Source: Chloroflexota bacterium
Lineage (GTDB): Bacteria; Chloroflexota; UBA11872
Direction: 5' to 3'
Assembly: GCA_026707285.1 (NCBI GenBank)
Contig: JAPOXD010000028.1
Location: forward strand, 24,350 to 88,349
Length of the DNA: 64,000 nt
The notes under the pieces were generated by a model, which was not told where the DNA came from, made no database searches, and saw nothing but the letters and a program-made list of their open reading frames with translations. This document shows, one piece after another, positions 46 through 64,000 of this stretch. The translations under genes were made by a program, and so were the position numbers. The first letter of the stretch is position 1. Each line of letters starts with the position of its first letter.

Positions 46-774
46 GTGACGGCCGCGCGCCAGCGGGGGACCGGACCCGCAATCTGGCTGGCGGGCGATC
101 CCGAGGACCTGAAAGTCTGGCTGCCCCGCGGCGGCTACGGCATCGTCACCAACACGGTGGTGCTCAACGAAATGGTCCAGAAGTACGGACCGCTCACCGA
201 GTTGGTGAAGCGCTACCTGGACGTCACCGACAAGCAGGTCGTGGTGGAGGTTGACGGGCACACCACCCAGGAGTTGCTCGACGTTTCCCACGTGTTCACG
301 CGCATGTCCGACCGCATCGTCATCAAGATTCCCTGCGCCGTGCACGGGCTCGAGGCCTTCAGCGTGCTCAAGGCGGAGGGCGTGGAGACCTTCTGCACCA
401 CGTGCTTCTCCCTGGGTCAGGCGGCGGCGGTCGCCCAGGCCGGCGCGACGCACATCCTGCCGTTTTGCGAGCCGGTGAAGCAGGTCGGCGGCGATCCGAC
501 CAAGCTGGTGCGGGAGTGCGTGGCGATGTTTAGCGGCTGGGAGCAGCGGCCGTACATCACGGCGGCGCTGGTGCGCTCGGTCGACACGGCCCTCGCGGCG
601 CTGCGAGACGGGGCCGACGGCATCATCATCTTCTGGAACGTCTTCGCCGAGTTGATGGAACACCCGCTCACCGACCAGTGGAACGACATGTTCATGGACG
701 AGTGGGTGCAGATGCACGAGGCGGGATATCTGGAAGGCGTGCCCGTCTCGCTCGGCGAGGGCGCGCACACCTAG
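46..774 (+). CDS. Transaldolase / fructose-6-phosphate aldolase family protein
   Basis: 242-aa ORF. The motif GIVTNTVV resembles the transaldolase GVTTNP signature, and the TIM-barrel-like composition fits. The N-terminus may lie upstream of the window start. Confidence 0.5.
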   Translation: MTAARQRGTGPAIWLAGDPEDLKVWLPRGGYGIVTNTVVLNEMVQKYGPLTELVKRYLDVTDKQVVVEVDGHTTQELLDVSHVFTRMSDRIVIKIPCAVHGLEAFSVLKAEGVETFCTTCFSLGQAAAVAQAGATHILPFCEPVKQVGGDPTKLVRECVAMFSGWEQRPYITAALVRSVDTALAALRDGADGIIIFWNVFAELMEHPLTDQWNDMFMDEWVQMHEAGYLEGVPVSLGEGAHT

Positions 775-784
775 GTCGCTCTCG

Positions 785-1198
785 GTGGGCAATGCGACGC
801 TGCGGGTGCGGCGTCCCGGCCCGCGTGTGGTGGCGCCGGACGACGTGCCCGTGTGGCCGGTCGAGCTGGCGCCCGCGCGCCATATGACGCTTGCCGAAGG
901 TCTGCTGGAACCCGGAGCGGTCTACCGGCCGCACGCTCACCGCACGATCGAGCAGCTCACCTACGTGCTGGCCGGGCGAGTGCGAATCACGTCGTTCGAT
1001 GAGGACGCCGGCCAGACGCAAAGCGTCGAACTGGGAGCTAGGGAGTGCGTCGTGTCCCTGCCGCGCGAGACGATCGAATTCGCCTGCGTGGGGAATACGG
1101 CGGCGCGGGTGCTGTTCGTGACGTCGCCGCCGTATCCCGCCGACCATTCGGACACGATCGTGCTGCGGGAGCACCAGTCGCTTGCGGACGAAAGCTGA
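785..1198 (+). CDS. Cupin domain protein
   Basis: 137 aa. Small beta-barrel protein with His-containing cupin-like motifs (AVYRPHAHRTIEQLTYVLAG). Lies immediately downstream of the previous gene. Confidence 0.4.
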   Translation: MGNATLRVRRPGPRVVAPDDVPVWPVELAPARHMTLAEGLLEPGAVYRPHAHRTIEQLTYVLAGRVRITSFDEDAGQTQSVELGARECVVSLPRETIEFACVGNTAARVLFVTSPPYPADHSDTIVLREHQSLADES

Positions 1199-1237
1199 GG
1201 GCGCGACCCGCGCAAGGTCGGTGAGGGCGGTCGGCGC

Positions 1238-1909
1238 ATGAGGGCCGCCGCCATGGTCGCCGCGATGGTGCTCCTGGCGGGATGCGGCGCAGCACCCGCC
1301 GAGACGGCGCCGCCAACGGCTCCGGTTGCCGCGGCAGCCACCGCCGCCGCCGCACCAGCGTCAACTCCAACCGCGGCGCCCGCGCCTTCGCCGACACCTG
1401 CGCCCACGGCGACGCCCGTCCCAACGCCAAGACCGTCGCCTACGCCGACCGCTACGCCGTCACCGACACCGGCGCCAACCGCCACGGCCACGCCTACCCC
1501 CGCCCCATCGCCGACGCCCGCGCTCGGACCGGAAATCCAGGCCGTGGCATCCATCGGCGCCTGCGAGCTTTACCTGGAAGTGGCGGACGATCCGGAGGAG
1601 CGCGCCGTGGGCCTCATGGGCCGTGAGTCCCTGGGGCGGGACCGCGGGATGCTGTTTGTCTACGCCGAAGACCAGGTGCTCAGTTTCTGGATGAAAAGCA
1701 CGCTCATCCCCCTCGACATCGTCTTCATCAACGGCGATTCAGTCGTCGTCGACGTGCAGACCATGCGTCCGGAGCGCGAGACCGCGCCAAACCTGCCGAT
1801 CACGCGGTCGGCGGCGCCGGCCCGCTACGCCATCGAGGTCAACGCCGGCGTCGCCGCCGAGTGCGGCATCGAGCCGGGAGAATTCGCCGAAATCCGCAGC
1901 CCTGCCTAA
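1238..1909 (+). CDS. DUF192 domain lipoprotein with Pro/Thr/Ala-rich linker
   Basis: N-terminal signal with lipobox (LLAGCG) and a long PTPAPT low-complexity linker. The C-terminal domain has DUF192-like motifs (ERAVGLMGR, GMLFVY, WMKSTLIPLDIVFI). Confidence 0.6.
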   Translation: MRAAAMVAAMVLLAGCGAAPAETAPPTAPVAAAATAAAAPASTPTAAPAPSPTPAPTATPVPTPRPSPTPTATPSPTPAPTATATPTPAPSPTPALGPEIQAVASIGACELYLEVADDPEERAVGLMGRESLGRDRGMLFVYAEDQVLSFWMKSTLIPLDIVFINGDSVVVDVQTMRPERETAPNLPITRSAAPARYAIEVNAGVAAECGIEPGEFAEIRSPA

Positions 1910-1920
1910 GACCTTGCGCC

Positions 1921-1990
1921 CTGTGCCCAAGGGCAGCCAAAAGGGCTGCCCCTACACGGACCCGCCTCCTGTAGGGGCGCCCCTTGTGGG
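1921..1990. terminator. Bidirectional terminator hairpins between convergent genes
   Basis: GGGCAGCC-AAAA-GGCTGCCC hairpin, plus the palindrome GGGGCGCCCC with flanking repeats. Sits between the DUF192 gene (+) and the oxidoreductase (-). Confidence 0.4.
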
Positions 1991-2014
1991 CGCCCGCGAT
2001 TCCGCGCGGGCCGA

Positions 2015-3049
2015 CTAAAGGACCCCACAGACGCGCAGCAGCGTCTCGTGCACGGCCAGATCATGCGCCGCGGTGTAGGCCGGCGCACGGTCGCCCCGAA
2101 TCCATGCGGCCAGGTCCTCGATGTCGCCGTCGTACCTGGGGCGCATGGGAATCGCCGGCTCGCTCCAGCCCGCCGGAAAGTCTTCGTGCGCTTCGCTGAG
2201 GTACAGGCGCACGCCGGGCGGCTCGATCGGCTCGATCAGCACCGAGCCGCGCTCGCCGATCACCTGGAAGCGCCGGTGGTGCATGGGCTCGTTGCCGGTG
2301 ACCCATGTCTGCAAGAGCGTCATCGCACCGGGATACTCCAGCACCGCCGTGCAGTTGTCCTCGAACGGCTCGCCCTGACCGCGCGCGTCTCGCCGGTGGC
2401 TGGCCCACACGCTGGAGGGCTTGCCCAGAAACAGCATGGCCGCATCGAGCACGTGGCATCCCAGGAGGTAGAACAATGCGCCGGCGTGCGCACCGTCCTT
2501 GGTTCGAATGTCGGCATAGCTGGCGATGTTGGTCGGGATGTCGACGTTGATGCGGGTGACGTTGCCCAGCCAGCCCTCGCGCATGGCGCGCAGGGCCAGC
2601 TCGATCGCGGGGTTGTAGCGAAACTGATAGCCCATCTGGACGTACAGGTTGCGGCTGGCAGCCAGGTCGAGCACTGCCCGCAGATCGGGGAGCGACGGTG
2701 ACGGCGCCTTGTCGATATGGATGTGCTTGCCGTGCTCCAGCGCCCGCCGCGCCCAGCGAAGGTTGTGCCGCGGCAGGGTTTCGACAAACACCACCGGGAT
2801 CGTCTCGTCGTGCAGCACGTCGACCTCGGACATCGCCGGGACGTCGGTGAAGCGGTCCACGGCCTGCTGCCGTCCCCACTCCGAGGCATCCGGCTCGAAC
2901 GCGCCCACGAACTCCATGTCATCGGAGCGGCGCAGCGCCTGCGCCTTGCCCCACGCATGGTCGTGCCCAATGCCAATCAGTGCCGCCCGCAGCTTGCCGC
3001 TCTGGTCCGACATCCCCCGCGCTCCTTCATCGACCCTGCCCGACGCCAT
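2015..3049 (-). CDS. Gfo/Idh/MocA family oxidoreductase
   Basis: N-terminal Rossmann motif LRAALIGIGHDH and an EFVGAFEPD segment typical of the family. The start may be the internal Met at 3013. Confidence 0.7.
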   Translation of the reverse strand: MASGRVDEGARGMSDQSGKLRAALIGIGHDHAWGKAQALRRSDDMEFVGAFEPDASEWGRQQAVDRFTDVPAMSEVDVLHDETIPVVFVETLPRHNLRWARRALEHGKHIHIDKAPSPSLPDLRAVLDLAASRNLYVQMGYQFRYNPAIELALRAMREGWLGNVTRINVDIPTNIASYADIRTKDGAHAGALFYLLGCHVLDAAMLFLGKPSSVWASHRRDARGQGEPFEDNCTAVLEYPGAMTLLQTWVTGNEPMHHRRFQVIGERGSVLIEPIEPPGVRLYLSEAHEDFPAGWSEPAIPMRPRYDGDIEDLAAWIRGDRAPAYTAAHDLAVHETLLRVCGVL

Positions 3050-3060
3050 TCGCCGTCATC

Positions 3061-4311
3061 ATGGCAGCCCGAGGGCTCGGCCGGCCGGATTTCGCGCGCA
3101 ATGGATGCCGTGGCTACGCTACATCCGTGAGTGACAAACAGCCCGCGGTCGAGTTGGCGGGCGATCAGGGATTCCCGGCGCCCACCGGCCGCACGCCGGA
3201 CGATCTGGCCTATTGGGTGGCGCTCAACGCCGTGCGCGGCATCAGTTCGGGCGCCGTCTGGGCCTTACGGCGGGCCTTCAACAGCATGGAGCAGGCCTGG
3301 GGCGCCTCCGCCACTGAGCTGCGACGCGCCGGGCTGGAGGCCAAGGTCGTCGAGCAGCTGCTCGACGCGCGGCGCGACATCGAGCCCGAGGCCGCGCTGG
3401 CGGCCCTTGAGGAAGCGGACGGGCGCGCCATCGCCTGGGACGACCCGGCGTATCCCGCCAGGCTGCGAGAGATCGCCGATCCACCGGCGCTGCTGCACGT
3501 CCGCGGGGACATCGACGCTTTGTCACAGGACCGGGCGGTCGCCATCGTCGGCACGCGGCGCATGAGCACCTACGCCCGGCTGGTCACCGAGCGGCTCGCC
3601 GGCGACCTTGCCGGCAGCGGCATCACCATTGTGAGCGGCATGGCCTCGGGCGTGGACAGCGTGGCGCATCGCGCAGCGCTCGAAGCGGGCGGGCCGACCG
3701 TCGCCGTGTGGGGCACGGGGCTTGGCACCGTCTACCCCGTCGCCAATCGAAAACTGGCACGACAGATCGCGGACCAGGGCGCCATCGTCACGGAGTATCC
3801 CGTGTGGATGCGCGGCTCGGCGGAGAACTTTCCGCAGCGCAATCGCATCATCAGCGGGCTGGTGCTCGGGACCATCGTGGTCGAGGCGCCGCTGCCGAGC
3901 GGGGCATTGATCACCGCGCGCTACGCCATCGAGCACAACCGCGAGATCATGGCGGTGCCCGGCGACATCTTCAAGACCGGCAGCCAGGGCACCAACGCGC
4001 TGATCTTTCGCGGCGAGGCCCGCGCCGTTACCTCAGCCGCCGACGTGCTGGATACGCTCGGCATCAGCGTCGATCCAGTCCAGCTCGCGCTGCATCCCGT
4101 TGTGGAGCCGGATGCCGACGAGCGCCCCATCGCCAATCAGCTCAACGCCTCACCCAAGCACATCGACACCCTGGCGCAATCCGCCGGACTCCCCGCGCAC
4201 CGCGTCTCGGCCATCCTCACCATGCTGGAACTCAAAGGCCTGGCCCGACACGTGGGCGGCGGTCGCTACGTCCATCCGCGACCCGAGCCGGCGGGCGGAC
4301 GCGATGGTTAG
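3061..4311 (+). CDS. dprA: DNA-processing protein DprA (Smf)
   Basis: Rossmann-like DprA core (AIVGTRRMSTYARLVTERLAGDLAGSGITIVSGMASGVDSVAHRAAL, GTIVVEAPLPSGALITARYAIEHNREIMAVPGDIFKTGSQGTNALI) with a C-terminal winged-helix-like tail. The start is uncertain (ATG 3061 or GTG 3127). The 5' end overlaps the divergent oxidoreductase gene. Confidence 0.8.
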   Translation: MAARGLGRPDFARNGCRGYATSVSDKQPAVELAGDQGFPAPTGRTPDDLAYWVALNAVRGISSGAVWALRRAFNSMEQAWGASATELRRAGLEAKVVEQLLDARRDIEPEAALAALEEADGRAIAWDDPAYPARLREIADPPALLHVRGDIDALSQDRAVAIVGTRRMSTYARLVTERLAGDLAGSGITIVSGMASGVDSVAHRAALEAGGPTVAVWGTGLGTVYPVANRKLARQIADQGAIVTEYPVWMRGSAENFPQRNRIISGLVLGTIVVEAPLPSGALITARYAIEHNREIMAVPGDIFKTGSQGTNALIFRGEARAVTSAADVLDTLGISVDPVQLALHPVVEPDADERPIANQLNASPKHIDTLAQSAGLPAHRVSAILTMLELKGLARHVGGGRYVHPRPEPAGGRDG

Positions 4312-52562: not shown

Positions 52563-54608
52563 CTACCGCTCGTCCCAGTACTCGTCCAGCCACACGCGCT
52601 CGATCGGCGAGTGCACCGGCATGGCGTAGAACTGCATGTAGAACGCCCCCTGCAGACGCCTGTGATACAGGTTCCGCAGTGAACCGCGCCAAAACAGTCC
52701 GGCCACCATGTTGCCCTTGGAGTGGAGTCGCGTGGCGAACTCGATCCACCGCTCGCGCAGCGCCTCGTTGTTCTCCGCCGCGAGCATGTCGGCGTACGCC
52801 TCGTCGATCCACGGGCGGTTGATGTTCGAGTGGTTCCAGCCGCCGAGCTCGTACACCCGGTCGCTGCACACGCGCAGGCACGCGTCCACCACCGCCTGGT
52901 CGCCGCCCATATTGGCGAGGACCAAGTCGTGCACCCGCTCCTGGTACAGCTTCTCGATCACCGCCGAGCCGTCGACCAGGAAGAACTCAACCTTGATGCC
53001 CACCTGCTCCCAGTAGTTCTTGAGCGCCAGGTCCGTCGGCGACGGCGGCCCCCACTTGATCCAGTTGATCACCTTCTCGGAGTCCCACTGGGCTTCCTCG
53101 ACCAGAGCGCGCGCCGCGTCCGGGTCGTAAGGCATGGCGCGGAAGGTGCCCTCGGGCGGGTCCTGCATCAGCGCCACGTGCTCGAAGATGTAGTCCGAGA
53201 TGAACAGCGTGCCCGCGTGGAGCTCGTTGTTGACCGTGTCCCGGTCCACCGCCCGCACCATGGCCTCGATCATCAGCGACTGCTGCTCGAGGGTCATGTC
53301 GGCGAAGGTCTCGGCGGTCTGGTTGAAGAACACGTGCCCGCCGAACGGTGAGCGCTGCGGGAACGGCCGCAGGTGCCCAAGGCTCGCGAGCCGCTGGAAG
53401 GCCTCGATGTTGCTGGCGCGGTGGAAGTCCTGCTCGCCCGCCTCCATCGCCGCGTCAAGCGCGTTGCGCTCGCCGTAACGCACGACGTAGTCGTCGACGT
53501 ACGGCGCGCCGTAGGCGAAGTCCTTGTGCGCCGTCATGTCGGCGAACTGCTGGGTGACGTAGCGCTCCCAGATCATCGGACCGTTACCCAGCGGGTTCAG
53601 CGCCCGCGTCTGGATGGCCGTTGCCGGGTCGAGACCGGCGTAGTGGTGCCGGGCCATGGGCGGCAGGTGCCAGTCGCGACTCGCCCACCAGGCCGAATCG
53701 GGCCGGTCGATCGCGACCTGCACCGTCATCTCGTCGATCTTCGTCAGGCCGGGAATGTCCTCCACGTTGTCCGTGGGGTTCTCGCCCCAGGCCTCGGCGC
53801 CCTCGATCCGGCCCCAGGCCTTCTTGTGCTGGCCCGAGCCGTAGTTCTTGTCCAGCCCCATCTTGGCGCCGAACAGCACGTCGTCCGCCGTCAACGGCAC
53901 CTGGTCGTGCCACGTGACGTCGGGATTGAGGTGGAAGTTGTAGACGCGGGCGCGCTCGACCTCGTCCCAGCTGCTGGCCACGCCTTTGTCCCACTCACCC
54001 GTCATGGCCGGGGTGTCACCGGCGCCCCACGTGTCGCCATACCACAGGGGCATGAACACGTAGTCGGTGATGTAGGCCTGCGAGCTGCTGACCTGCTTGA
54101 GCGGGTTGAAGATGTCCTGGTGGTTCGGGCCGCTGCCGCTGTGATTCAGCGTGCCGCCGCTGATCGGACCCTCCGGGATCATCATCTCGGCCGTGACTTC
54201 CTTGATGACCTCGACTTCCTTGGTGACGATCTTCTCGACGACGACTTCCTTCGGGACTTCCTTGATGACTTCGACTTCCTTGACGACTTCCTTCGGAACC
54301 TCCTTGACGACTTCGACTTCCTTGACGACTTCCTTGATCACTTCCTGCGTCACGACCTTCTCGACCGCGACTTCCTTGACGACTTCCTTCGTGACCACGG
54401 ACTCGACCGGGACCTCCTTCACCACTTCCTTGGTGACGACGGTCTCAACCGGGACCTCTCGGATCACTTCCTGCGTGACGATTTTTTCGACGACTTGCGC
54501 CTCGCCACACGCCGCCAGCACGGCCGCCCCCGCCGCCCCAAACAGGCCGGCGGACGCACCGCGCAACAGATTCCGACGGGTCATGACCCGTCCCGCAACA
54601 TCCTTCAT
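52563..54608 (-). CDS. Tat-lipoprotein ABC transporter substrate-binding protein, family 5, KEV-repeat linker (paralog 2)
   Basis: Same architecture as paralog 1. The linker is identical and the SBP domain is about 70% identical to paralog 1. Confidence 0.75.
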   Translation of the reverse strand: MKDVAGRVMTRRNLLRGASAGLFGAAGAAVLAACGEAQVVEKIVTQEVIREVPVETVVTKEVVKEVPVESVVTKEVVKEVAVEKVVTQEVIKEVVKEVEVVKEVPKEVVKEVEVIKEVPKEVVVEKIVTKEVEVIKEVTAEMMIPEGPISGGTLNHSGSGPNHQDIFNPLKQVSSSQAYITDYVFMPLWYGDTWGAGDTPAMTGEWDKGVASSWDEVERARVYNFHLNPDVTWHDQVPLTADDVLFGAKMGLDKNYGSGQHKKAWGRIEGAEAWGENPTDNVEDIPGLTKIDEMTVQVAIDRPDSAWWASRDWHLPPMARHHYAGLDPATAIQTRALNPLGNGPMIWERYVTQQFADMTAHKDFAYGAPYVDDYVVRYGERNALDAAMEAGEQDFHRASNIEAFQRLASLGHLRPFPQRSPFGGHVFFNQTAETFADMTLEQQSLMIEAMVRAVDRDTVNNELHAGTLFISDYIFEHVALMQDPPEGTFRAMPYDPDAARALVEEAQWDSEKVINWIKWGPPSPTDLALKNYWEQVGIKVEFFLVDGSAVIEKLYQERVHDLVLANMGGDQAVVDACLRVCSDRVYELGGWNHSNINRPWIDEAYADMLAAENNEALRERWIEFATRLHSKGNMVAGLFWRGSLRNLYHRRLQGAFYMQFYAMPVHSPIERVWLDEYWDER

Positions 54609-54928
54609 GCCAGCCTCCCCTGCCGCCGTCCTGGCGGCGGCGCACCGCTAGGCGAACGTTCCGCGGCGACGGTGTCGGGGCGGCGCGCCTTGCATCATCC
54701 CGGCCACGCCGCGGGGCGCGAGATTAACCGAATCAACTACGGGCGGGCAAGTTTTCCTAACCGGAAGTGACGCGCGGGTCGGTGGATTTCCCCGACGCGT
54801 GCGATCCCCGGCGCGTCCGTGGGAATCCCGCCCATCGCCAAGACGCGGAAGAGCCGGCGGTCTTGCGACCGCCGGCTCTTCGCTGTCCGCGGGTGCCGCT
54901 GCTCAGCGCAGGGGCATCGCGGTGAGCG

Positions 54929-56992
54929 CTACCGCTCTTCCCAATACGGGTCGATCCACACCTGGTTGATCGGGGACCGAACGGGAATCGCGTAGTGCTG
55001 CATCCAGAAGGCGCCCTGGACTCGGCGGTGGTACAGGTTGAGCAGCGAACCGCGCCACAGCAGGCCGGCCACGATGTTGCCCTTGGAGTGCAACCGTGCG
55101 GCCAGCTCCAGCCATCGCTCGCGCTTCTCTTCCTGCGTCTCCGCCGCGAACACCGCCGCGTACATCTCGTCGATCCACGGGCGGTTGATGTTCGAGTGGT
55201 TCCACCCACCGAGCTCGTACACCTTGTCGCTGCACACGCGCAGACACGCGTCGAGGGCGTTCTGGCCGCCACCCATGTTCGCCATGACCATGTCGTGCAC
55301 GCGCTCTTGGTACAGCTTCTCGATCACGGCTGAACCGTCGACAAGCAGGAACTCGGTCTTGACGCCAACCTGGTCCCAGTAGTCCTTGAGCGCCAGGTCC
55401 GCGGCAGACGGCGGCCCCCACTTGATCCACTTGATGACCTTCTCCGAGTCCCACTGGGCCTCTTCAAGCAGGGCCCGGGCCTCATCGGGGTCGTAGGACA
55501 GGTCGCGGAAGGTGCCCTCCGGCGGGTCCTGCAACAGCGCGATGTGCTCGAAGATGTAGTCCGAGATGAACAGCGTGCCGCCGTACAGCTCGTTGTTCAT
55601 GGTCTCGCGGTCGACCGCGCGCACCATGGCCTCGATCACCAGCGACTGCTGCTCAAGGGTCATGTCCGAGAAGATTTCGGCGGTCTGGTTGAAGAACACG
55701 TGCCCGCCGAACGGTGAACGCTGCGGGAACGGCCGCAGGTGCGGCTGTGCCGCCAGCCGCGCGAAGGCCTCGGTCCGTGAGCCGCCAGCCGCGCGATGGA
55801 AGTCGATCGGGTTCGGCTGCTCGTTGGCCTCGGTGGCCGCGTTCAGCGCCTCGCCGTCACCGTAGCGCACGATGTAGTCGTCCACCCACGGTGCGCCGTA
55901 GGCGTAGCTCTTGTTCGCCGTGAGGTCGGCGAACTGCTGCGTGACGTAGCGCTCCCAGATCATCGGACCGTTGCCCAGCAAGCTGGTGGCCCGCGCCTCG
56001 GTGGCGATCGCCTTGTCCAGTCCCGCGTAGTGGTGGCGCGCCATCGGGAAGATCTTGCTCCCCGCCGCCCACCAGTCCGGGTCCTCCTTCTCGAGCGCAA
56101 CCTGAATCGTCATCTCGTCGATGACGGAGATGCCCTCGATGTCCTCAGCGCTGTCGGTCGGGTTGTCGCCCCAGGCCCTGGCGCCGGCGATGTCGCCCCA
56201 ATCCTGCTTGTGCTTGTTGTTGTTGTAGTTGGTGTCGAACGCCATCTCGATGCCGAACAACACGTCGCTGACGGTCAACGGCGCGCCGTCGTGCCAACCC
56301 ACGTCCGGATTGAGCGTGAAGTTGTAGACGCGGTTGCGCTCGACCTCTTCCCAGCTGTTGGCCACACCAGGCGCCCACTGGCCGGTCATCGCCGGTGTCT
56401 CACCCGGACCCCACGTGTCGCCATACCACAGGGGCATGAAGACGTAGTCGGTCACGAAGGCCTGCGTGCTGCTGACCTGGCGGAGCTGCGTGAAGATGTC
56501 CTGGGTGTTGGCGCGGCTGGCGCTGAGCGTCAGGACCTCGCCACTGAGCGGACCCTCCGGAATCATCATCTCGGCCGTGACTTCCTTGATGACCTCGACT
56601 TCCTTCGTCACGACCTTCTCGACGACGACTTCCTTCGGCACTTCCTTGATGACTTCGACTTCCTTGACGACTTCCTTCGGCACTTCCTTGACGACTTCGA
56701 CTTCCTTGACGACTTCCTTGATCACTTCCTGCGTCACGACCTTCTCGACCGCGACTTCCTTGACGACTTCCTTCGTGACCACGGACTCGACCGGGACCTC
56801 CTTCACCACTTCCTTGGTGACGACGGTCTCAACCGGGACCTCTCGGATCACTTCCTGCGTGACGATTTTTTCGACGACCTGCGCCTCGCCACACGCCGCC
56901 AGCACCGCCGCGCCTGCGGCCCCGAATAGGCCGGCGGACGCACCGCGCAACAGATTGCGGCGGGTCATGACACGCCCCGCAACATGCTTCAT
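54929..56992 (-). CDS. Tat-lipoprotein ABC transporter substrate-binding protein, family 5, KEV-repeat linker (paralog 3)
   Basis: Same architecture. The ORF extends to 57043, but the conserved start M(K/R)(H/D)VAGRVMTRRNLL supports 56992. Confidence 0.75.
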   Translation of the reverse strand: MKHVAGRVMTRRNLLRGASAGLFGAAGAAVLAACGEAQVVEKIVTQEVIREVPVETVVTKEVVKEVPVESVVTKEVVKEVAVEKVVTQEVIKEVVKEVEVVKEVPKEVVKEVEVIKEVPKEVVVEKVVTKEVEVIKEVTAEMMIPEGPLSGEVLTLSASRANTQDIFTQLRQVSSTQAFVTDYVFMPLWYGDTWGPGETPAMTGQWAPGVANSWEEVERNRVYNFTLNPDVGWHDGAPLTVSDVLFGIEMAFDTNYNNNKHKQDWGDIAGARAWGDNPTDSAEDIEGISVIDEMTIQVALEKEDPDWWAAGSKIFPMARHHYAGLDKAIATEARATSLLGNGPMIWERYVTQQFADLTANKSYAYGAPWVDDYIVRYGDGEALNAATEANEQPNPIDFHRAAGGSRTEAFARLAAQPHLRPFPQRSPFGGHVFFNQTAEIFSDMTLEQQSLVIEAMVRAVDRETMNNELYGGTLFISDYIFEHIALLQDPPEGTFRDLSYDPDEARALLEEAQWDSEKVIKWIKWGPPSAADLALKDYWDQVGVKTEFLLVDGSAVIEKLYQERVHDMVMANMGGGQNALDACLRVCSDKVYELGGWNHSNINRPWIDEMYAAVFAAETQEEKRERWLELAARLHSKGNIVAGLLWRGSLLNLYHRRVQGAFWMQHYAIPVRSPINQVWIDPYWEER

Positions 56993-57190
56993 ACAAACCT
57001 CCCCTTGCCGCCGACATGGCGGTAGCACCGCCCCGCGGACCACCCGCGGCGGCGGCTTTCCAGCGGCGCATTATCCACAAATTTGGGCAACGCCGCGAAC
57101 GCCAAGGACACCCGAAGTCCCGGCAGCCCTTCCGCGTCTGGGGTCCCCGCGCACACAACTCCGCTGCGGACGACGACTGACCGCCGTGCG

Positions 57191-58354
57191 CTAGAACCGG
57201 CCCTCGTGAATGCGACGTAAACCGGCCCAGAAGGCGTCGTCGTCGCCGACCCGCGCGTCGACGTAGATCCCAAAGCCATCGGATCCCGAGGCGACCATGG
57301 CCCGAGCGGCGGCGACGATTCGCTCGACGAGCACCGGCACGGGCTCGTTCTCGGGCGCGTTCGAGGCGATGGCCGTGGCACACACGCGAAAGCCATTGCC
57401 CACCAGGTCGCGCACGGTCGCCATCTCGCGCTCGATGCGAGCGATGTCTGACAGCCAGCAGCCCGACTCGTTTGACGGGTCGCTGGGCGGATAGAGCGGG
57501 TCGTTGAGAAAGAAGCGCGGATATACCGCGTCGACCAGGCCCTCCTCGACCCAGGCCGGCCAGTCCAGGCCGAGCTTGTAAGCCTCGTCGGGTCGGGCCC
57601 AGATGCCCTCGGTGGCCGCCGCGACCTCCACCGGTCGCCCCAAGGCGTCGAGGTCGTGGCGCAACTCGCGAAAGAACTGCGTGACGTAATCGGCCCGCAG
57701 TCGCGCCCAAGCCGGGTCGTCCGCGGACCGAGAACGCGGGTCCACGCCGAACCGACGGCGGTACTCGGCAAGCGCCGGCGCGTCGTATCCCAGCGGCCAC
57801 ACGCGCTCGCCGGCCGCCAGCACGGGCAGGAACTCCAGTTGCACCCCGTCGGCCCCGAAGTCGCGGGCGAAGGCCACTAGCTCACGGCGCGCATAGGCGC
57901 GGACTTCGGGGTGCGCCAGAGCCAGATAGCCCACGTCGTAGCCCAGCACCGGCTCACCGACGTCCCAGGCGAGCCAGCTTCGGCCATCGCGGGCCTTGGA
58001 CATGAATTCGGGGTGATCGACGGCAAACCTGGGCACTCGACCAACAGGTTCGATGACCCGCGGCACCTGGTGGCGTGATCCCGCCCAGACGCCGGCAAGG
58101 CCGAGAATGCTGTAGGCATCGACTCGAAGGCCGGCCGCGTGGGCCTCGTCGATGCGGCGTTTGAGCAACCGGGCGCCGGCTTCGGTCTGCTCCGGCGCCC
58201 CGATTTCGATGCCGTCGGAACCCGGCCGCCGCTCACAGGCGACCCACGCGTGACTCTCAAGCACGCCCTGGGCGTAATGCACGACCTTGCTGACACCGGA
58301 CGCGGCGCAAACGGCGGCGGCAGCACCTGGGTCCACGAACTCGATGTCGACCAT
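57191..58354 (-). CDS. Hypothetical protein, possibly a TIM-barrel glycoside-hydrolase-like (GHL) protein
   Basis: About 387 aa starting from the Met at 58354 (MVDIEFVD). The longer ORF has an implausible N-terminus. No firm motif. Confidence 0.35.
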   Translation of the reverse strand: MVDIEFVDPGAAAAVCAASGVSKVVHYAQGVLESHAWVACERRPGSDGIEIGAPEQTEAGARLLKRRIDEAHAAGLRVDAYSILGLAGVWAGSRHQVPRVIEPVGRVPRFAVDHPEFMSKARDGRSWLAWDVGEPVLGYDVGYLALAHPEVRAYARRELVAFARDFGADGVQLEFLPVLAAGERVWPLGYDAPALAEYRRRFGVDPRSRSADDPAWARLRADYVTQFFRELRHDLDALGRPVEVAAATEGIWARPDEAYKLGLDWPAWVEEGLVDAVYPRFFLNDPLYPPSDPSNESGCWLSDIARIEREMATVRDLVGNGFRVCATAIASNAPENEPVPVLVERIVAAARAMVASGSDGFGIYVDARVGDDDAFWAGLRRIHEGRF

Positions 58355-58586
58355 GGGAGGGCACGCTAGCACGGTGCGCCCATAGCGCCACGGCCGGTAC
58401 TCCGATTTACCCCCACACAGCCTGCGGGGGACGGCTCGTGCGAATGGCTGGAAGCATGCATCGAGGTCGACGCGGCCTCCCAGCACCGCAGGCCCCCGAC
58501 AGGCCACGGCAACTCGAACCAGCAAGGTCAGCGGCAGTCGTGAGTGCATGGTCGAAGCGGCAGCGATTCACGCGTTTTGGGGAATC

Positions 58587-58681
58587 TGTGAGAATCATTT
58601 CAGACCTTAGTGAGATGTCGTCGCCACTAGATATGCATTAGTGAGATATCGTCGCCATAACCTATGGCGACGTATCGTGAC
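58587..58681. promoter_or_regulatory. AT-richer putative metalloregulator operator region: Zur-box-like palindrome plus three ATCGTCGCCA motifs
   Basis: TGTGAGAATCATTTCAGACC (58587..58606). Direct repeats TTAGTGAGAT(G/A)TCGTCGCCA (58607..58626, 58638..58657). Inverted repeat CGTCGCCAT-N5-ATGGCGACG (58650..58672). All lie about 60 to 150 nt upstream of the His-rich gene. Confidence 0.4.
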
Positions 58682-58736
58682 GTTGGTATTGTGCGTGCTG
58701 GGCGATGCGACAGACGCATCTCAACGAGGAGACCGC

Positions 58737-58979
58737 ATGCACGATCACGACCACGGCAGCGACCACTGCCACGAGCATGAGGGCGAGCACTGCCACGAGC
58801 ACGAAGGCGTGCACTGCCACGAGCACGGCCCGGGGCACTGTCACACGCACGGCGACGAGGCCTGCGTCGCCATTGGCGGAGACGAGATGCTGGACGAGCA
58901 CGGCACGGACCACTGCCACCAGCACGGCGAAGAGCACTGCGCCGCGGTGGGCGACCCTCACCACGCAGCTCACGCCTAG
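58737..58979 (+). CDS. Small His/Cys-rich metal-binding protein (HCH-repeat protein)
   Basis: 80 aa. Five repeats of DHCHEHEGEHCHEH type (H-C-H triads) with acidic spacers. GAGGAG RBS 6 nt upstream. Confidence 0.55.
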   Translation: MHDHDHGSDHCHEHEGEHCHEHEGVHCHEHGPGHCHTHGDEACVAIGGDEMLDEHGTDHCHQHGEEHCAAVGDPHHAAHA

Positions 58980-59093
58980 CTGACAAGCGCCCAACGGGCG
59001 TAGATCGACTCAGCTGAGTTGCGCACACGCGGATATTCGGCGGCCCAGTGCTCCGCTGGGCCGCCATCTCCGCATTAGGGGAACGGCGGCGCT

Positions 59094-60353
59094 ATGACAT
59101 CCGGACATCGCCACAGCCACGGGGACGGTCATGACCATCACGGGCATGACCACGACCATGCCCACGAGCATGAGGGTCATGACCACGCCCACGACCATGC
59201 GCATGACCACGGGCACGAGCATTGCGACCACGACCATAAGCACGAGGGCCACGATCACGCGCACGACCACGGGCACGAGCATTGCGACCACGACCATTCC
59301 CACGAACACGACCACGCGCATGCCCATGATCACGGGCATGACCACGACCACGGACATGACGACCACGACCATGGGCATGGACATGGGCATGGCCATCATC
59401 ACCACGGCCACGGCCACGACCACCACCACGACCTGCGCGGAGCCAGCAAGCGCGTCCTGATCATCGCGTTGGCGTTGATCAGCACCTTCATGGTCGTCGA
59501 GGTCATCGGCTCGATCATCTCCGGCAGTCTGGCGCTGCTGGCGGACGCCGGGCACATGCTCACGGACTCGGCGGCCATCGGCCTGGCGCTGTTCGCCATG
59601 TGGCTGTCGGGCCGCTCGGCAACCGCCGGCACCACCTTCGGCTACCACCGAACCGAGGTGCTCGCCGCGCTCATCAACACCTTGACTCTCTGGCTGATCG
59701 CAGGCTGGATCTTCTTCGAGGCGTTTCGCCGGTTCTTCGAAACTCCGGAGGTCCACGGCGACGTGCTCTTCGGCGTCGGCCTGGTGGGATTGGTCGTCAA
59801 TATCATTGCGGCGTTCGTGCTGCACCGCGCCGCCGGCGAGAGCCTGAACGTGGAGGGCGCCTACCAGCACGTGCTGGCGGACCTGTTGGGATCCGTTGGG
59901 GTCATCATCTCGGGAATCCTGGTGCTGGCCTTCGGGTGGTATATCGCCGACCCGATCCTGAGCGTCGTCGTCGGCCTGCTGATTCTCAAGAGCTCCTGGG
60001 GCCTGTTCATGGGGGTCTTCAAGGTGCTGCTGGAAGGGACGCCCGACAACGTGGACATGTATCGGCTGTGCAGCGAGATGGAGGACGTGGAGGGCGTGAC
60101 CTTGGTGCACGACGTCCACGCCTGGACCATCACCTTGGGCTACCACGCCTTCACGGCGCACGTGCTGGTCGACCCTGAATACCCAGGAGATTCGGGCGAA
60201 CTCCTGACCCGGCTGCGCAAGATCGCGCAAGGCTTCGGCCTCACCCACATCACGCTGCAACTCGAACACTCGGCGGCGGGCTGCGAGGAGGAGAACCACC
60301 ACGTGGACCACCTCATCGCGCGCTCCATGGCCGAGGCGGAGGGCGCGACCTGA
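59094..60353 (+). CDS. Cation diffusion facilitator (CzcD/ZitB-like) transporter with ~120-aa poly-His N-terminal extension
   Basis: N-terminal HGHDHDHAHEHEGHDHAHDH... repeats, then a six-TM CDF core (SLALLADAGHMLTD, HVLADLLGS) and a C-terminal cytoplasmic domain. Confidence 0.8.
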   Translation: MTSGHRHSHGDGHDHHGHDHDHAHEHEGHDHAHDHAHDHGHEHCDHDHKHEGHDHAHDHGHEHCDHDHSHEHDHAHAHDHGHDHDHGHDDHDHGHGHGHGHHHHGHGHDHHHDLRGASKRVLIIALALISTFMVVEVIGSIISGSLALLADAGHMLTDSAAIGLALFAMWLSGRSATAGTTFGYHRTEVLAALINTLTLWLIAGWIFFEAFRRFFETPEVHGDVLFGVGLVGLVVNIIAAFVLHRAAGESLNVEGAYQHVLADLLGSVGVIISGILVLAFGWYIADPILSVVVGLLILKSSWGLFMGVFKVLLEGTPDNVDMYRLCSEMEDVEGVTLVHDVHAWTITLGYHAFTAHVLVDPEYPGDSGELLTRLRKIAQGFGLTHITLQLEHSAAGCEEENHHVDHLIARSMAEAEGAT

Positions 60354-60585
60354 GCTAGCGTCCGCCGCTCCGCGTGGAGCCGGCGTCAGACGCTCGACGA
60401 CTCAGGGCGTCGGCGTCCCCCGCCGTGGGCTCCATTGGGCTTCGGGTGTTCCCGGAGCGTTGGCGTCAGCGGGGGGCCTCGAGTCGTGGAGCGCCGCGTG
60501 GGCCTGGACTCACGCTCCCTGCGGTCACGACGACCGCGTGAGACCAAGTTTGCGCGTGAGCGTCCGTCACGAAGGGTCCGGCGTG

Positions 60586-60658
60586 ATGGTCCCACCGGGA
60601 TTCGAACCAGGGACAAGCCGGGAATGACCCGGCTGCTCTGATCGTCGAGCCGTGTGCC
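60586..60658 (-). other. Degenerate tRNA-like element (tRNA-Met CAT-like) or tRNA remnant
   Basis: The minus strand reads GGGCACA-CG-GCTC-GACGATCA-GAGC-A-GCCGG-GTCATTC-CCGGC-TTGTC-CCTGG-TTCGAAT-CCCGG-TGGGACC-A. It has a canonical T-loop and D-stem. Defects: the acceptor stem pairs at 5 of 7, there is one T-stem mismatch, the D-loop lacks GG, and position 37 is a pyrimidine. Confidence 0.3.
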
Positions 60659-60749
60659 CGTTGCGGGGACTGCCCGTTACTTGCACACTGTGTCATCTGT
60701 TACATGCACAAAGTGTCAGTTGGCGTCACCGCCGCTGGAGGAAGTATTC

Positions 60750-61334
60750 ATGGCTCGGGGACTGCTGCTCGCGGCTCTGGCGTTGGTACCTGTCGTGATC
60801 CTGGTCGTGGTCGTCCTGGTCCTGGTCGTCATCAGGCCCGGCGGAGCGCATGAGCCAACGCCGGGCCTTACGGCCGAAGCCGCCCTCGCATCGCCGGATG
60901 GCGAGGCCATCGGCGCCGTGAGATTCCTTCAAACTTCGGGCGGGGTCCTGGTCATCGCCGACATCCAGGGACTGACCCCGGGAGGCCACGCGTTCATCAT
61001 CCACGAGGTCGGCGCGTGCTCCCCGAACTTCGACGCCGCCGGCGACCACTTCAACCCAACCGGTGCGGAACACGGCTTCGTCCATTCGGCGTGGCAGCGC
61101 GGAGGAGCGACCGAGGCGCATGGCGGCGACCTGCCGAATATCTACGCCGCCGCCGACGGTTCTGCCCGCGCCGACTTCTTTACGGTTGGCGTCACGCTGG
61201 ACATGGGCCCGGCCCATTCCATCTTTGACGCCGACGGCTCCGCCATCGTCGTCCACGAGCGGCCCGATTCCTACGGGCAGTCCGAGCCTGACACCGGCGC
61301 CCGCCTGGCATGCGGAGTCATCAACCGCACCTAG
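60750..61334 (+). CDS. sodC: Superoxide dismutase [Cu-Zn]
   Basis: Cu/Zn-SOD motifs HAFIIHEVGAC, GDHFNPTG, HGGDLPN, AIVVHERPD, and the C-terminal GARLACGVI. The N-terminal hydrophobic anchor is unusually long. GGAGGAAG RBS. Confidence 0.8.
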   Translation: MARGLLLAALALVPVVILVVVVLVLVVIRPGGAHEPTPGLTAEAALASPDGEAIGAVRFLQTSGGVLVIADIQGLTPGGHAFIIHEVGACSPNFDAAGDHFNPTGAEHGFVHSAWQRGGATEAHGGDLPNIYAAADGSARADFFTVGVTLDMGPAHSIFDADGSAIVVHERPDSYGQSEPDTGARLACGVINRT

Positions 61335-61432
61335 CGATCTGACGGCCGGCGCTCGATGGCGGGCGTATACCTGGCCCGCGGAACACGCCGCGCCGCGCAG
61401 CCGCCAGTGGCATCAACGCGTGTCGGCGGCGC

Positions 61433-62317
61433 TCAATGATGGTGGTGATGCTGGTGATTCGGCGAACCGTCCCGGCTCGCTGAAGCGGAAAGCCCCGCGC
61501 CCCCGCCGCGGCGCCAGCGCCGCAAGGCCACCCAGAGATGGGCCAGGGCCAGCAGTCCCAGGGCCGTCAGCACGGTTGCGCCGCCGGCCGAGGCGTCGAC
61601 GTAGAACGCGATGGTCAACCCAACCAGAGCGCTGATGACGCCGGCGACGATGGCCGTGCCCATCGCGGCCCGCAATCCGCGCGCGACCCGCAGCCCGACC
61701 ATCACGGGCACGACGAGCATGGCGCCCACCAGCAGCACGCCGACCACCCGCATCGACAACGTGATCGTCGCGCCGGTCAGAATTGCCAGCGCGAGGTTGA
61801 GCAACCCCGTCGGCACGCCGTTGACCTTCGCCAGGTCGTCGTCGAAGGCGATCTGCGCCAGGTCGACGAAGAACACGGCGACAAACAGCAGCACCGCAAT
61901 CGTGAGCCCAGCGAGCAGCCACAGATCGAGCGGCGACACGCTGAGGATCGAGCCGAAGAGGAATGAGAAGAGGTCGACGTTGAATCCTCCGGCAATCCCG
62001 ATGACGACGACGGCGAAGGCCAGCGCGCCGTAGAGCACCACGGCCATGGCCACGTCGCCCGGCAGCCGGCCGCGGGAGCGGAGCTGCTCGACGAGGATCG
62101 CGCCCAGCGACGCCGCCACGAGAGCCACCACCGACGGAAACGTGTTTGTCGCCAGTCCCACGGCCACGCCCATGAGCGCCACGTGCGCCAGCGTCTCGGC
62201 GATAAGCGAAAAGCGCCGCAGCACGATGAAGACGCCCAGCGTGGGCGCCAGGATTCCCACCAGCGCACCGCCGATGAGCGCGCGCACCATGAACTCGTAG
62301 AGAAGGATGGTGGGCAC
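61433..62317 (-). CDS. znuB: Metal (zinc/manganese) ABC transporter permease ZnuB-like, natural C-terminal HHHHH tail
   Basis: ABC-3 family eight-TM permease. Ends in ...SPNHQHHHHH. Confidence 0.8.
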   Translation of the reverse strand: MPTILLYEFMVRALIGGALVGILAPTLGVFIVLRRFSLIAETLAHVALMGVAVGLATNTFPSVVALVAASLGAILVEQLRSRGRLPGDVAMAVVLYGALAFAVVVIGIAGGFNVDLFSFLFGSILSVSPLDLWLLAGLTIAVLLFVAVFFVDLAQIAFDDDLAKVNGVPTGLLNLALAILTGATITLSMRVVGVLLVGAMLVVPVMVGLRVARGLRAAMGTAIVAGVISALVGLTIAFYVDASAGGATVLTALGLLALAHLWVALRRWRRGGGAGLSASASRDGSPNHQHHHHH

Positions 62318-62319
62318 GG

Positions 62320-63096
62320 CTAGCGGTGTTCGTGGAGCGCGTCGTGCACCAGCACGTCGACGGGCACGCCGTAGAGCATGGCGATTTCTTCGCTGGTGAG
62401 CTCGTGGGGCGGGCCGTGCCGAACCAGCGTCCGGTTCATACAGGCCAGGGTGCTGGCCTCGCGCAGCATGGCCCCAATATCGTGCGAGACGAGCACGATG
62501 GTGATGTTGCGCTCGCGGTTGAGGTCGCGAAGGACGGCGTAGAGCTGCTCTTCACCCGAGACATCGACGCCGGCCGCGGGCTCGTCCAGCACGATCAACT
62601 CCGGGCGACGCACCAGCGCCCGAGCCAAGAGGACCCGCTGCTGCTGGCCGACGGAGAGCTCCGAAAGGCGCCGGCCCGTGTAGCCCGCCATGCCGACCGC
62701 TTCCAGGGCCTCAACGACCTCGGGCCGCTTGGAGCGGTGGAACACCGCAAACGGGGCAATGCCGCGGTAGGCCCCATGGGCCACCGTCTCAGCGACGGTG
62801 ACGGGAAAGTCGCGCCAAACCCCGGCAACCACCTGCGGCATGTAGCCAACGCGGTCCCAATCGGCGAAGTCCTCGGCGTCGCGCCCAAACAACCGCACGG
62901 AGCCGGCGGTGGGGCGCAGCAGACCGAGAGCCAGGCGAATCAGCGTGCTCTTGCCGCTGCCGTTGGGACCCAAGACCGCCGCCAGCTCTCCGGCGTGGAT
63001 GCAGAGCGACACGTCCTCCACCGCCACCGCCTCGCCGTACGCGAAGGTCACGTGGTCCCATTCGATGACGGGAGGCGGCAGCGGCTCAGACGTCAT
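62320..63096 (-). CDS. znuC: Metal ABC transporter ATP-binding protein ZnuC-like
   Basis: Walker A GPNGSGKST, signature LSVGQQQRV, Walker B LIVLDEPAAGVD. Confidence 0.8.
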   Translation of the reverse strand: MTSEPLPPPVIEWDHVTFAYGEAVAVEDVSLCIHAGELAAVLGPNGSGKSTLIRLALGLLRPTAGSVRLFGRDAEDFADWDRVGYMPQVVAGVWRDFPVTVAETVAHGAYRGIAPFAVFHRSKRPEVVEALEAVGMAGYTGRRLSELSVGQQQRVLLARALVRRPELIVLDEPAAGVDVSGEEQLYAVLRDLNRERNITIVLVSHDIGAMLREASTLACMNRTLVRHGPPHELTSEEIAMLYGVPVDVLVHDALHEHR

Positions 63097-64000
63097 TCAC
63101 ATGCCAGGGCGACCTTGAGATTGGCGAGATTGTCCCGCATGAGCCCGAAGTAGTCGCCGTGCGCCTCGAGCTCGTTCTCCGTCACGCTGCCGATGGCGTG
63201 GATGGAAAGCAACTCGATGCCGGTTTCGCGGGCGATGGTCTGTGCAAGTCGGTCGCTGAGGACCGGCTCGACCATGACATGCCCCAGGCCCAGGTCGGTC
63301 ACGCGGTCGGTCACGTTCGCCAACCGCTGCGGCGAGGGCGCCACGTCGGCGGAAAGGCCGGCCACCGCGATCTGCTCCAGGCCGTATTGCGCGGCCAGGT
63401 ACCCGTAGGCCGCGTGTGAGGTCACGAAGTGATCGTGCTTGCACGCGCCGAGGTCTTCCTCGAACTCGTGGTCCAACTCGTCCAGCTCGGCGATCACCTC
63501 GTCCGCGCGCTGGCGGTAGCCGTCGGCGTTGTCGGCGTCCGCCGCGATGAAGGCGTCACGGATGCGCTCGACCTGGCGGGCGGCCAGCGTGGGACTCAGC
63601 CACATGTGGGGGTCGAGTTCGGATTCCTCATCGCCGTGGTCGCCTTCTTCTTCGTGGTCGCCTTCTTCGTCCGCATCCTCGTCGCCGTGGTCGCCTTCCT
63701 CGTCGGCATCCTCGTCGCCGTGGTGGCCTTCTTCGTCCGCATCCCCGTTTTCGTGATCGCCTTCCTCATCGGCGTCCTCGTCACCGTGGTCACCTTCTTC
63801 ATCGGCATCCTCGTCGCCGTGGTCGCCCTCTTCGTCAGCGTCCTCGTCGCCGTGATCGCCTTCCTCTTTGTCGTGATCGCCTTCCTCTTCACCGTGACTG
63901 TGGACTTCGCCTTCCATGGCCTGGGTCGGGTCGGCCGCCTCCACAACAATCGCGGTCAAGTCGTCCCCGATGGCCTCAATCGCCCCGTCCATCCAGGGCT
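63093..64000 (-). CDS. znuA: Metal ABC transporter substrate-binding protein ZnuA-like with very long His/Asp/Glu loop (5' end beyond window)
   Basis: Cluster-9 SBP C-terminal half. Contains a ~110-aa loop of (EEGDHGDEDAD)n repeats, typical of ZnuA His-rich loops but unusually long. The gene continues past coordinate 64000. Confidence 0.7.
   Translation of the reverse strand, partial: PWMDGAIEAIGDDLTAIVVEAADPTQAMEGEVHSHGEEEGDHDKEEGDHGDEDADEEGDHGDEDADEEGDHGDEDADEEGDHENGDADEEGHHGDEDADEEGDHGDEDADEEGDHEEEGDHGDEESELDPHMWLSPTLAARQVERIRDAFIAADADNADGYRQRADEVIAELDELDHEFEEDLGACKHDHFVTSHAAYGYLAAQYGLEQIAVAGLSADVAPSPQRLANVTDRVTDLGLGHVMVEPVLSDRLAQTIARETGIELLSIHAIGSVTENELEAHGDYFGLMRDNLANLKVALACE

Follow-up and report, generated by a model that had tools for sequence, protein, structure and literature searches.

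What is the small, histidine-rich protein encoded directly in front of a metal exporter gene in a Chloroflexota genome, and what might it do there? The DNA in question is a contiguous stretch of 64,000 nt from a bacterium of the UBA11872 lineage (assembly GCA_026707285.1, contig JAPOXD010000028.1, positions 24,350 to 88,349), referred to here at its full length as the window. A first-pass annotation had described a metal-homeostasis cluster in it and had singled out an 80-residue protein with five His-Cys-His (HCH) triads as a possible novel zinc or cadmium chaperone or buffer. Comparison with relatives demonstrates that this gene, called HCH below, is real and under selection, that its pattern of Cys and His residues is conserved, and that it is linked to a gene for a cation diffusion facilitator (CDF). 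On balance, HCH is probably a His-dominated, metallothionein-like cytosolic Zn(II) buffer that is co-expressed with the exporter, a reading that rests on comparative sequence analysis.

The HCH gene and its product

The HCH gene was found at 58737-58979 on the + strand and encodes a protein of 80 residues with exactly five HCH triads, as had been described. Of these residues, 23 are His (29 %), seven are Cys (9 %), and 19 are Asp or Glu (24 %). The protein has a mass of 8.76 kDa and a pI of 5.45, contains no Phe, Tyr, or Trp, and has almost no hydrophobic core. It is predicted to be cytoplasmic, with neither a signal peptide nor a transmembrane segment found in the window protein. A Shine-Dalgarno sequence, GAGGAG (58726-58731, + strand), can be read 5 nt ahead of the ATG, and orthologues have AAGGAGGAAA or GGAGG at the matching position.

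Four N-terminal xHCHxHxG units make up the first part of the window protein and are followed by the core HGDEACVAIGGxExxDEHG...EHCAAxxDPHHAAHA. Modelling with AlphaFold2 from a six-sequence alignment gave a mean predicted local distance difference test score (pLDDT) of 47. The HCH units are modelled as short beta-hairpins. Such a result would be expected if folding needs metal.

A conserved family under purifying selection

A scan of one genome per species, covering 185,579 species, identified 23 loci carrying HCH, all in assemblies labelled Chloroflexota, Dehalococcoidia, or SAR202. Four further loci were found on metagenome contigs, giving 27 relatives and, with the window, 28 loci in total; loci are designated below by L numbers and protein matches by P numbers. 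At least 23 species genomes carry the gene. In every locus the ATG start lies behind a Shine-Dalgarno site, and the stop codon is likewise kept on the + strand. The in-frame sequence upstream of the ATG is not conserved among the relatives, and a 112-residue version starting from a GTG at 58641 was rejected because its upstream part is conserved in no relative. With the ATG and its Shine-Dalgarno site preserved, but not the frame ahead of them, the open reading frame (ORF) does not belong to some longer His-rich gene, a concern that had been raised when it was first noticed.

The other concern, that the ORF might not be translated, is answered by its pattern of substitution. Pairwise ratios of nonsynonymous to synonymous substitution rates (dN/dS) are 0.04-0.18, with dS up to 1.5, and third codon positions are variable in 74 of 85 cases, against 30-32 of 85 for first and second positions. 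When all six frames are compared by the corresponding ratio of proportions of differences (pN/pS), the + frame has the lowest value, 0.245, and the others range from 0.36 to 1.7. The seven Cys positions and about twenty His positions are kept across lineages in which synonymous change is saturated (dS 0.8-1.5). Judged by this substitution pattern, HCH is a genuine translated gene, and its recurrence under purifying selection in 27 other loci means that the HCH pattern is not a product of chance. Antisense frames opposite HCH are open in most loci; the Val-rich antisense ORF at 58662-58994 was considered as the true gene and rejected, as the pN/pS comparison favours the + frame.

The alignment of the family falls into two parts, with the invariant columns concentrated in residues 38-80. 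The C-terminal 45 residues or so are nearly invariant and read H-x-H-G-D-E-A-C-(V/A)-A-(I/L)-G-G-x-E-x-x-D-E-H-G...E-H-C-A...D-P-H-H-A-x-H-A-A. By comparison, the number of eight-residue xHCHxHxG units at the N-terminus changes between members: P0004 and P0006 have a single unit, L002 and L025 have two, and the window protein and the main group of loci have four. Overall length ranges from 47 to 90 residues, with 65 in the L002 protein and 87 in the main-group form. A fixed core with an expandable, ligand-rich tail is also the layout of the accessory proteins UreE, HypB, and SlyD, which have His-rich tails.

No Pfam match was obtained for the window protein, in either its 80- or its 112-residue version, or for 17 relatives, at E-values up to 10. 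Neither version of the window protein matched NCBIfam, and a profile search of the PDB returned nothing at E-values up to 10. A profile search of 1.84 billion cluster representatives gave eight matches, of which P0008 and P0010 were set aside as low-complexity look-alikes, and a collection of 5.8 billion proteins holds only eight HCH entries, all unnamed. The literature searched contained no description of the protein. Based on these searches, HCH is an unnamed and essentially unannotated family confined to SAR202/Dehalococcoidia-type (marine) Chloroflexota, and one that gene callers and protein databases miss almost entirely.

Pairing with a CDF exporter gene

It had been suggested that the neighbours of HCH be examined in other genomes, and the outcome is strongly positive. 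In 23 of the 28 loci HCH immediately precedes a CDF gene, always of one type and transcribed in the same direction, and in all of the paired loci the distance from the HCH stop to the CDF start is 105-117 nt. The pair occurs in four different outer contexts, with only the pair itself conserved. For example, in the window subgroup it is flanked by a glycosyl-hydrolase-like gene on one side and by znuBCA-zur on the other, in the main group by an MFS gene, an unknown gene, and then rhodanese and SIMPL genes, and in L026 by a tRNA synthetase gene. In L015 a low-quality poly-C/poly-G run (approximately 3890-3990), probably an assembly artefact, immediately follows HCH and the CDF gene comes next.

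The CDF gene of the window (59094-60353, + strand) encodes 419 residues with matches to PF01545 (E 6e-44) and TIGR01297 (275 bits). Among the NCBIfam models it scores 243 bits for ZitB and 114 bits for DmeF; as the equivalog cut-off for ZitB is 408 bits, the protein is ZitB-like rather than a ZitB equivalog. The motifs HMLTD in transmembrane segment 2 and HVLAD in segment 5 supply HxxxD twice, forming an HD-HD transport site. In CDF proteins this arrangement at site A characterizes ZitB, CzcD, and ZnT, and it favours Zn(II). The protein ends in a tail with the pattern C-EEEN-HH-VD-H. Its start codon is ATG in the window and mostly GTG elsewhere.

The poly-His N-terminal arm that had been described for this exporter is present and spans residues 1 to about 115. 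It consists of HDHDAHAEHDHGHEG-like units in succession, corresponding to a DNA-level tandem repeat at 59145-59433, and 54 of the first 118 residues are His. Among the relatives (L002-L026) the arm is 25 to about 170 residues long, and it therefore evolves very fast. Frameshifts in or near the arm in several long-read assemblies (L010, L021) may be sequencing errors in the repeat or real decay.

There are also loci in which the partners have parted. In L008 and L024 the CDF gene has been cleanly deleted, with the full outer synteny kept and with the HCH gene and its promoter intact. In L001 and L020 HCH lies beside a CDF remnant in which an internal deletion has fused the His arm to the C-terminal tail; this remnant is an in-frame, 65-residue ORF in L001 (1833-2030) and is frameshifted in L020 (from 8363). 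The opposite case is L027, where HCH has decayed and the CDF gene persists. There an insertion sequence (IS) or transposase insertion, with rve_3 and DDE_Tnp_IS1 hints, and several small ORFs (540-3381) separate the two genes.

The intergenic spacer

The spacers of all three subgroups contain two hairpins, a small one right after the HCH stop and a strong, GC-rich one of 10-18 bp at 25-35 nt before the CDF start. In the window the small hairpin, GCGCCC-AAC-GGGCGU (58987-59001, + strand), begins 8 nt past the stop, and its equivalents are GCACC...GGTGC in L016-L022 and CCGGT...ACCGG in the main group. The strong hairpin (59039-59065, + strand) has a perfect 10-bp stem, GGCGGCCCAG / CTGGGCCGCC, and lies 29 nt ahead of the CDF start. 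When the spacers are folded separately, its position is seen to be kept while the stem sequences differ among the three subgroups. The hairpins are not alignable by sequence, and RNAalifold on a MAFFT alignment of the spacers from all subgroups gave a meaningless consensus. In the relatives the stem is followed by GTTTTCG or CTTTTGCG.

The strong hairpin resembles an attenuator or terminator and may have a role in the expression of the CDF gene. The strong Shine-Dalgarno site and ATG of HCH, set against the mostly GTG start of the CDF gene and the hairpin-bearing spacer, suggest one transcription unit that would yield more HCH protein than CDF, that is, more buffer than pump.

Upstream region and regulation

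Upstream of HCH in the window there is an operator-like repeat array (58607-58672, + strand), consisting of two 29-nt direct repeats, TTAGTGAGATrTCGTCGCCA..., whose starts are separated by 31 nt. The second of them shares part of its sequence with a perfect 10-3-10 palindrome, CGTCGCCATA-ACC-TATGGCGACG. The exact sequence GATRTCGTCGCCA occurs nowhere else in the 64 kb. When scored with a matrix derived from the real Zur boxes that the relatives have at zur and znuA, the two repeats (58611 and 58642) are the second and eleventh best matches in the window. They score no more than 8.2 and 3.4, however, whereas the real boxes reach 20-27. Zur-box-like half-sites are present upstream of HCH in all subgroups, TGCAACnCAGTATCA in the main group and TGATATTAGATATGC in L001, L020, and L021; they rank with the best matches in their sequences, but their scores are 3-14 on the same scale.

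The promoter of the main group is well conserved (TTGACA-N17-AACAAT), with a conserved GTATCGCAAcccaGTATCAG element just upstream of the -35. A precedent comes from Streptomyces, where Zur in its zinc-loaded form acts at a box ahead of the -35 to activate zitB, a CDF gene (PMC5472717, PMC9371925). By analogy, Zur could activate the HCH-CDF module, which is offered as a lead only. No riboswitch, whether NiCo (czcD-motif) or any other Rfam element, was found by cmscan of 54000-64000 at E-values up to 1, the three matches returned being spurious small RNA or microRNA families.

A perfect 6-3-6 palindrome, CGATACGAGGTATCG, with GTG as its spacer in L011, was also noted approximately 330 nt upstream of the HCH ATG in 11 loci (L003-L004, L007-L013, L023, and L024). 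It lies inside the upstream ORF, for example at 7654-7668 in L004. Its GATAC/GTATC core is that of the Zur boxes of the lineage, and it may be an operator or the product of coding constraint.

Proposed function of the HCH-CDF module

It is proposed that HCH and a ZitB/CzcD-type Zn(II)/H+ CDF form a two-gene module, in which the order of promoter, strong Shine-Dalgarno site and ATG of HCH, hairpin spacer of approximately 110 nt, and weaker CDF start would lead to the soluble protein being made in large excess over the transporter. Rising cytosolic Zn(II) would switch the module on, with Co(II) or Cd(II) less likely as triggers. HCH would then quickly bind several ions through its xHCHxHxG units, which are probably beta-hairpins exposing His-x-His and Cys on opposite faces, and through its invariant C-terminal Cys and His core. 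It would thereby act as a labile, high-capacity buffer similar to metallothionein, but with His taking the place of Cys as the chief ligand. The CDF would pump the metal out, and where both proteins are present the cytosolic His arm may take metal from HCH by ligand exchange, so that a direct hand-over is possible.

Zinc is the most likely ligand, based on the HD-HD site of the CDF, its ZitB-type score, and, in the window subgroup, the adjoining znuBCA; cobalt, cadmium, and nickel are lesser candidates. That HCH is intact where the CDF gene is deleted (L008, L024) or reduced to a remnant (L001, L020) fits a buffer with a value of its own.

Several observations weigh against this proposal. Metal binding by HCH has no detectable support from homology, and the structure model is of low confidence. 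The Cys content is below that of classical metallothioneins. In L027 HCH has decayed to 47 residues and lost a conserved Cys, with the CDF persisting, which means that the protein is dispensable in some lineages. The strong hairpin of the window lacks a canonical T-run, and a scan for consensus terminators found none. No metal-sensing regulator (ArsR, MerR, or other) adjoins the module in the loci examined; zur excepted, none was found among ten small ORFs of the window or the neighbours examined in L005 and L018. Likewise, there is no strong Zur box in the HCH promoter. With neither an adjoining regulator nor a strong Zur box, the module may be induced by metal excess or by scarcity.

Alternative explanations

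The same observations can be read in other ways. HCH might be a dedicated zinc metallochaperone, its core docking on the arm or the C-terminal domain of the CDF and its repeats carrying Zn(II) to the transport site in the manner of CopZ and CopA. This would account for the tight, conserved pairing with its constant-length spacer, and for an invariant core with variable repeats, typical of metallochaperones with His-rich tails. It would also account for the decay of HCH in L027, where an IS element parts it from the CDF gene, and for the patterns that the two proteins have in common: an N-terminal MTT(E)H.H.H, HxHxHEG-type units, and a C-terminal C-x(3-6)-HH-x2-H. However, HCH and its promoter are intact in two loci from which the CDF gene is gone and HCH stands beside a mere remnant in two more, and CDFs with His arms are known to work without a chaperone. 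Each gene can outlive the other, which favours a buffer with its own value over an obligate, exporter-specific chaperone; the chaperone reading is the chief rival, but an unlikely one. A zinc chaperone is not known for any bacterial CDF, nor is a protein that passes zinc to a CDF exporter. A more specific version, also unlikely, would make HCH the first dedicated cytosolic zinc carrier of a CDF, born of the arm and tail of the exporter, capturing metal with its hairpins and passing it to the arm. The remnant in L001 indicates that a CDF gene can be reduced by internal deletion to an ORF consisting of the arm and the tail. Smith-Waterman comparisons of HCH with the CDF arm against composition-matched shuffles gave inconsistent z-scores of 3.3, 0.3, and 2.7. 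An origin of HCH from the arm and tail by duplication and internal deletion is thus possible, but speculative and not supported.

The remaining explanations fare worse against the evidence. A reservoir for scarcity, which would store Zn(II) under Zur control and release it during shortage in a zinc-poor marine habitat, would suit the module's position next to zur-znuACB in the window subgroup and the weak Zur-like half-sites found upstream of HCH in every subgroup. It is improbable, given that these half-sites score far below the real boxes, that an exporter as partner makes more sense under excess than under scarcity, and that the main-group site lies upstream of the -35, the activator position from which Streptomyces Zur turns on zitB under zinc excess (PMC5472717, PMC9371925). 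Storage or detoxification specific to nickel or cobalt, with a protein similar to Hpn and a CDF exporting Co or Ni, is very improbable. The very high His and low Cys content does resemble that of Helicobacter Hpn, and DmeF-type CDFs export Co and Ni and have a weak match in the window CDF, but that protein scores far better as ZitB and has the HD-HD site. Moreover, no NiCo riboswitch was found in the region and no hydrogenase, urease, or Ni/Co uptake genes occur among the neighbours examined. The hairpin 8 nt past the HCH stop, the strong second one before the CDF ribosome-binding site, and the constant spacer could mark HCH as a regulatory leader, with its translation or its metal-bound product controlling read-through of the hairpin and so setting CDF expression. 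Yet conservation of the protein extends well beyond its His codons (GDEACVAIGG, DEHG, DPHH) at low dN/dS, HCH is kept where the CDF gene has gone, and 80 codons are long for a leader peptide, making this highly improbable. Finally, it is barely credible that HCH is non-functional, either as a decaying duplicate of the 5′ end of the CDF gene or as the shadow of the antisense ORF. The antisense frame is open in most loci, the N-terminus of HCH resembles that of the CDF, and L001 retains an arm-and-tail remnant, but on the + strand the Shine-Dalgarno site and the ATG and stop codons have been retained, as have the Cys and His positions over large synonymous distances, and pN/pS is lowest in the + frame.

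Comparison with known systems

If HCH is a His-dominated zinc buffer, it is a new family of a general kind that is already known. Closest in character are Hpn and Hpn-2 of H. pylori, which are small, cytosolic, more than 25 % His, low in Cys, without a predicted metal-free fold, and presumed to buffer several ions. There is no sequence relationship between them and HCH in the searches of the 1.84- and 5.8-billion-protein collections or of the PDB. Hpn has poly-His runs and EEGCC motifs, where HCH has xHCHxHxG units and a conserved core, and Hpn is tied to nickel, urease, and hydrogenase, whereas the neighbours of HCH that were examined are a Zn-type CDF and znuACB.

In the broad sense of the term HCH resembles a metallothionein, having a low mass, no aromatic residues in the window protein, almost no hydrophobic core, and a low-confidence model. 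With SmtA/BmtA (PF02069) and MymT it would share the role of a low-molecular-weight cytosolic buffer that lacks aromatics and folds around metal, and SmtA, which excess zinc induces, likewise uses His for some of its ligands. The first-pass view that HCH is no classic metallothionein is nevertheless borne out: neither the window protein nor 17 members match any metallothionein family at E-values up to 10, including Metallothio_Pro (PF02069) with its zinc-finger-like Cys9His2 fold. With 9 % Cys and 29 % His, against a typical 15-30 % Cys, coordination would be dominated by His. In addition, SmtA is paired with the repressor SmtB, and HCH with an exporter.

The His arms of CDF and ZnT proteins (CzcD, ZitB, ZnT) have the same ligand chemistry and a short HxHxHEG repeat as in HCH; HCH differs in being free-standing, with regular Cys and a non-repetitive core, and its similarity to the arm amounts to z-scores of 0.3-3.3 against shuffles. 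As in CopZ-CopA, the gene for a small soluble protein that would bind metal lies immediately upstream of an exporter gene and is presumably co-transcribed with it. CopZ, however, has a ferredoxin-like fold with one CxxC, binds Cu(I), and serves a P1B-ATPase; HCH shows neither that fold nor that motif, offers numerous potential sites, and is partnered by a CDF. In the czrA-czrB and smtB-type arrangements, too, a small gene, there of the ArsR family, stands immediately ahead of a zinc CDF gene, but HCH has no helix-turn-helix or ArsR domain according to Pfam and is therefore not a DNA-binding repressor of that type.

Neighbouring genes

The description of the surrounding cluster as one of metal homeostasis holds, and by Pfam and NCBIfam matches the metal is zinc. 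HCH is the sole new element in it, and the remainder is an ordinary zinc-homeostasis neighbourhood. Matches to PF01545, PF00080, PF00005, and PF00950 confirm the CDF and the Cu/Zn superoxide dismutase on the + strand and ZnuC and ZnuB on the - strand, all of which had been named beforehand.

SodC, the Cu/Zn superoxide dismutase (60750-61334, + strand; PF00080, E 3e-35; NCBIfam SodC models), has an N-terminal membrane anchor. It is absent between the CDF gene and znuB in L016, L017, L018, and L022, and its position is specific to the window genome. The CDF stop is separated from the start of sodC by 400 nt, and within this gap there is a fragment (60588-60640, - strand) similar to the 3′ half of a tRNA, with an anticodon arm, a TTCGAAT T-loop, and the 3′ strand of the acceptor, but no 5′ half; ARAGORN and Rfam give no call for it. 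As sodC is absent here in the closest relatives, the fragment may be an att-site scar of sodC insertion.

The ABC-3 family permease ZnuB (61433-62317, - strand; PF00950, E 3e-57) ends in ...NHQHHHHH. The His tail reported previously is therefore present, although it and an extension of approximately 30 residues are found in this genome only, with the relatives ending in ...RRWQRGAHT. The ATPase ZnuC (62320-63096, - strand; PF00005, E 1e-28) is 72-75 % identical to its orthologues in L016-L022. The ZnuA/AztC-type zinc-binding protein (63093 to beyond 64000, - strand; PF01297, E 4e-46) is cut by the edge of the window and lies outside the 58560-63096 interval first assigned to the cluster. Its N-terminal lobe is missing, the Pfam match beginning at profile position 97, and the L018 orthologue has 355 residues. 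The acidic and His-rich (EEGDHGDEDAD)n loop noted in ZnuA is present, at approximately 100 rather than 110 residues, and is encoded by a 33-nt tandem repeat of 6.4 copies (63653-63863); in relatives it is shorter, at about 50 residues in L018 and 65 in L022. The features that had been called extreme are thus present, but the CDF arm and ZnuA loop are lineage-specific tandem-repeat expansions of features known in these families and not new devices.

In L016, L017, L018, and L022 zur (Fur family, PF01475) lies upstream of znuA, and the equivalent in the window would lie beyond 64000. These four loci have three strong TGATACnnnGTATCA boxes, two immediately upstream of zur and the third at the zur/znuA junction (in L018, for example, 12976-13012 and 12492-12506). 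With ZnuA, the ABC-3 permease, and the ATPase together, and with zur and its boxes known from the relatives, a ZnuABC and Zur system is recognized here. A tRNA-Arg(TCG) gene was noted approximately 200 nt upstream of zur in the same four loci.

Elsewhere in the window, two tandem paralogous ORFs of approximately 680-700 residues were noted on the - strand (52563-54608 and 54929-57043), with the first 150 residues or so almost identical. Both have a long (KEVV/KEVE/KEVP)n repeat linker after a signal sequence and, by appearance only, look like solute-binding proteins.

Significance of the HCH family

The catalogue of small zinc buffers in the bacterial cytosol is poor, and classical metallothioneins are rare in bacteria. 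If HCH is only a generic buffer, its recognition is a useful annotation and involves no new principle; if it is a dedicated carrier, the module would be a bacterial zinc counterpart of the CopZ-CopA relay. In either case the family is a compact candidate, with members of 47-90 residues that form a natural gradation in repeat number, and with loci in which one or the other partner has been knocked out naturally. Together, the His and acidic expansions in the CDF arm, ZnuA loop, ZnuB tail, and HCH units point to strong and fast-changing selection on zinc handling.

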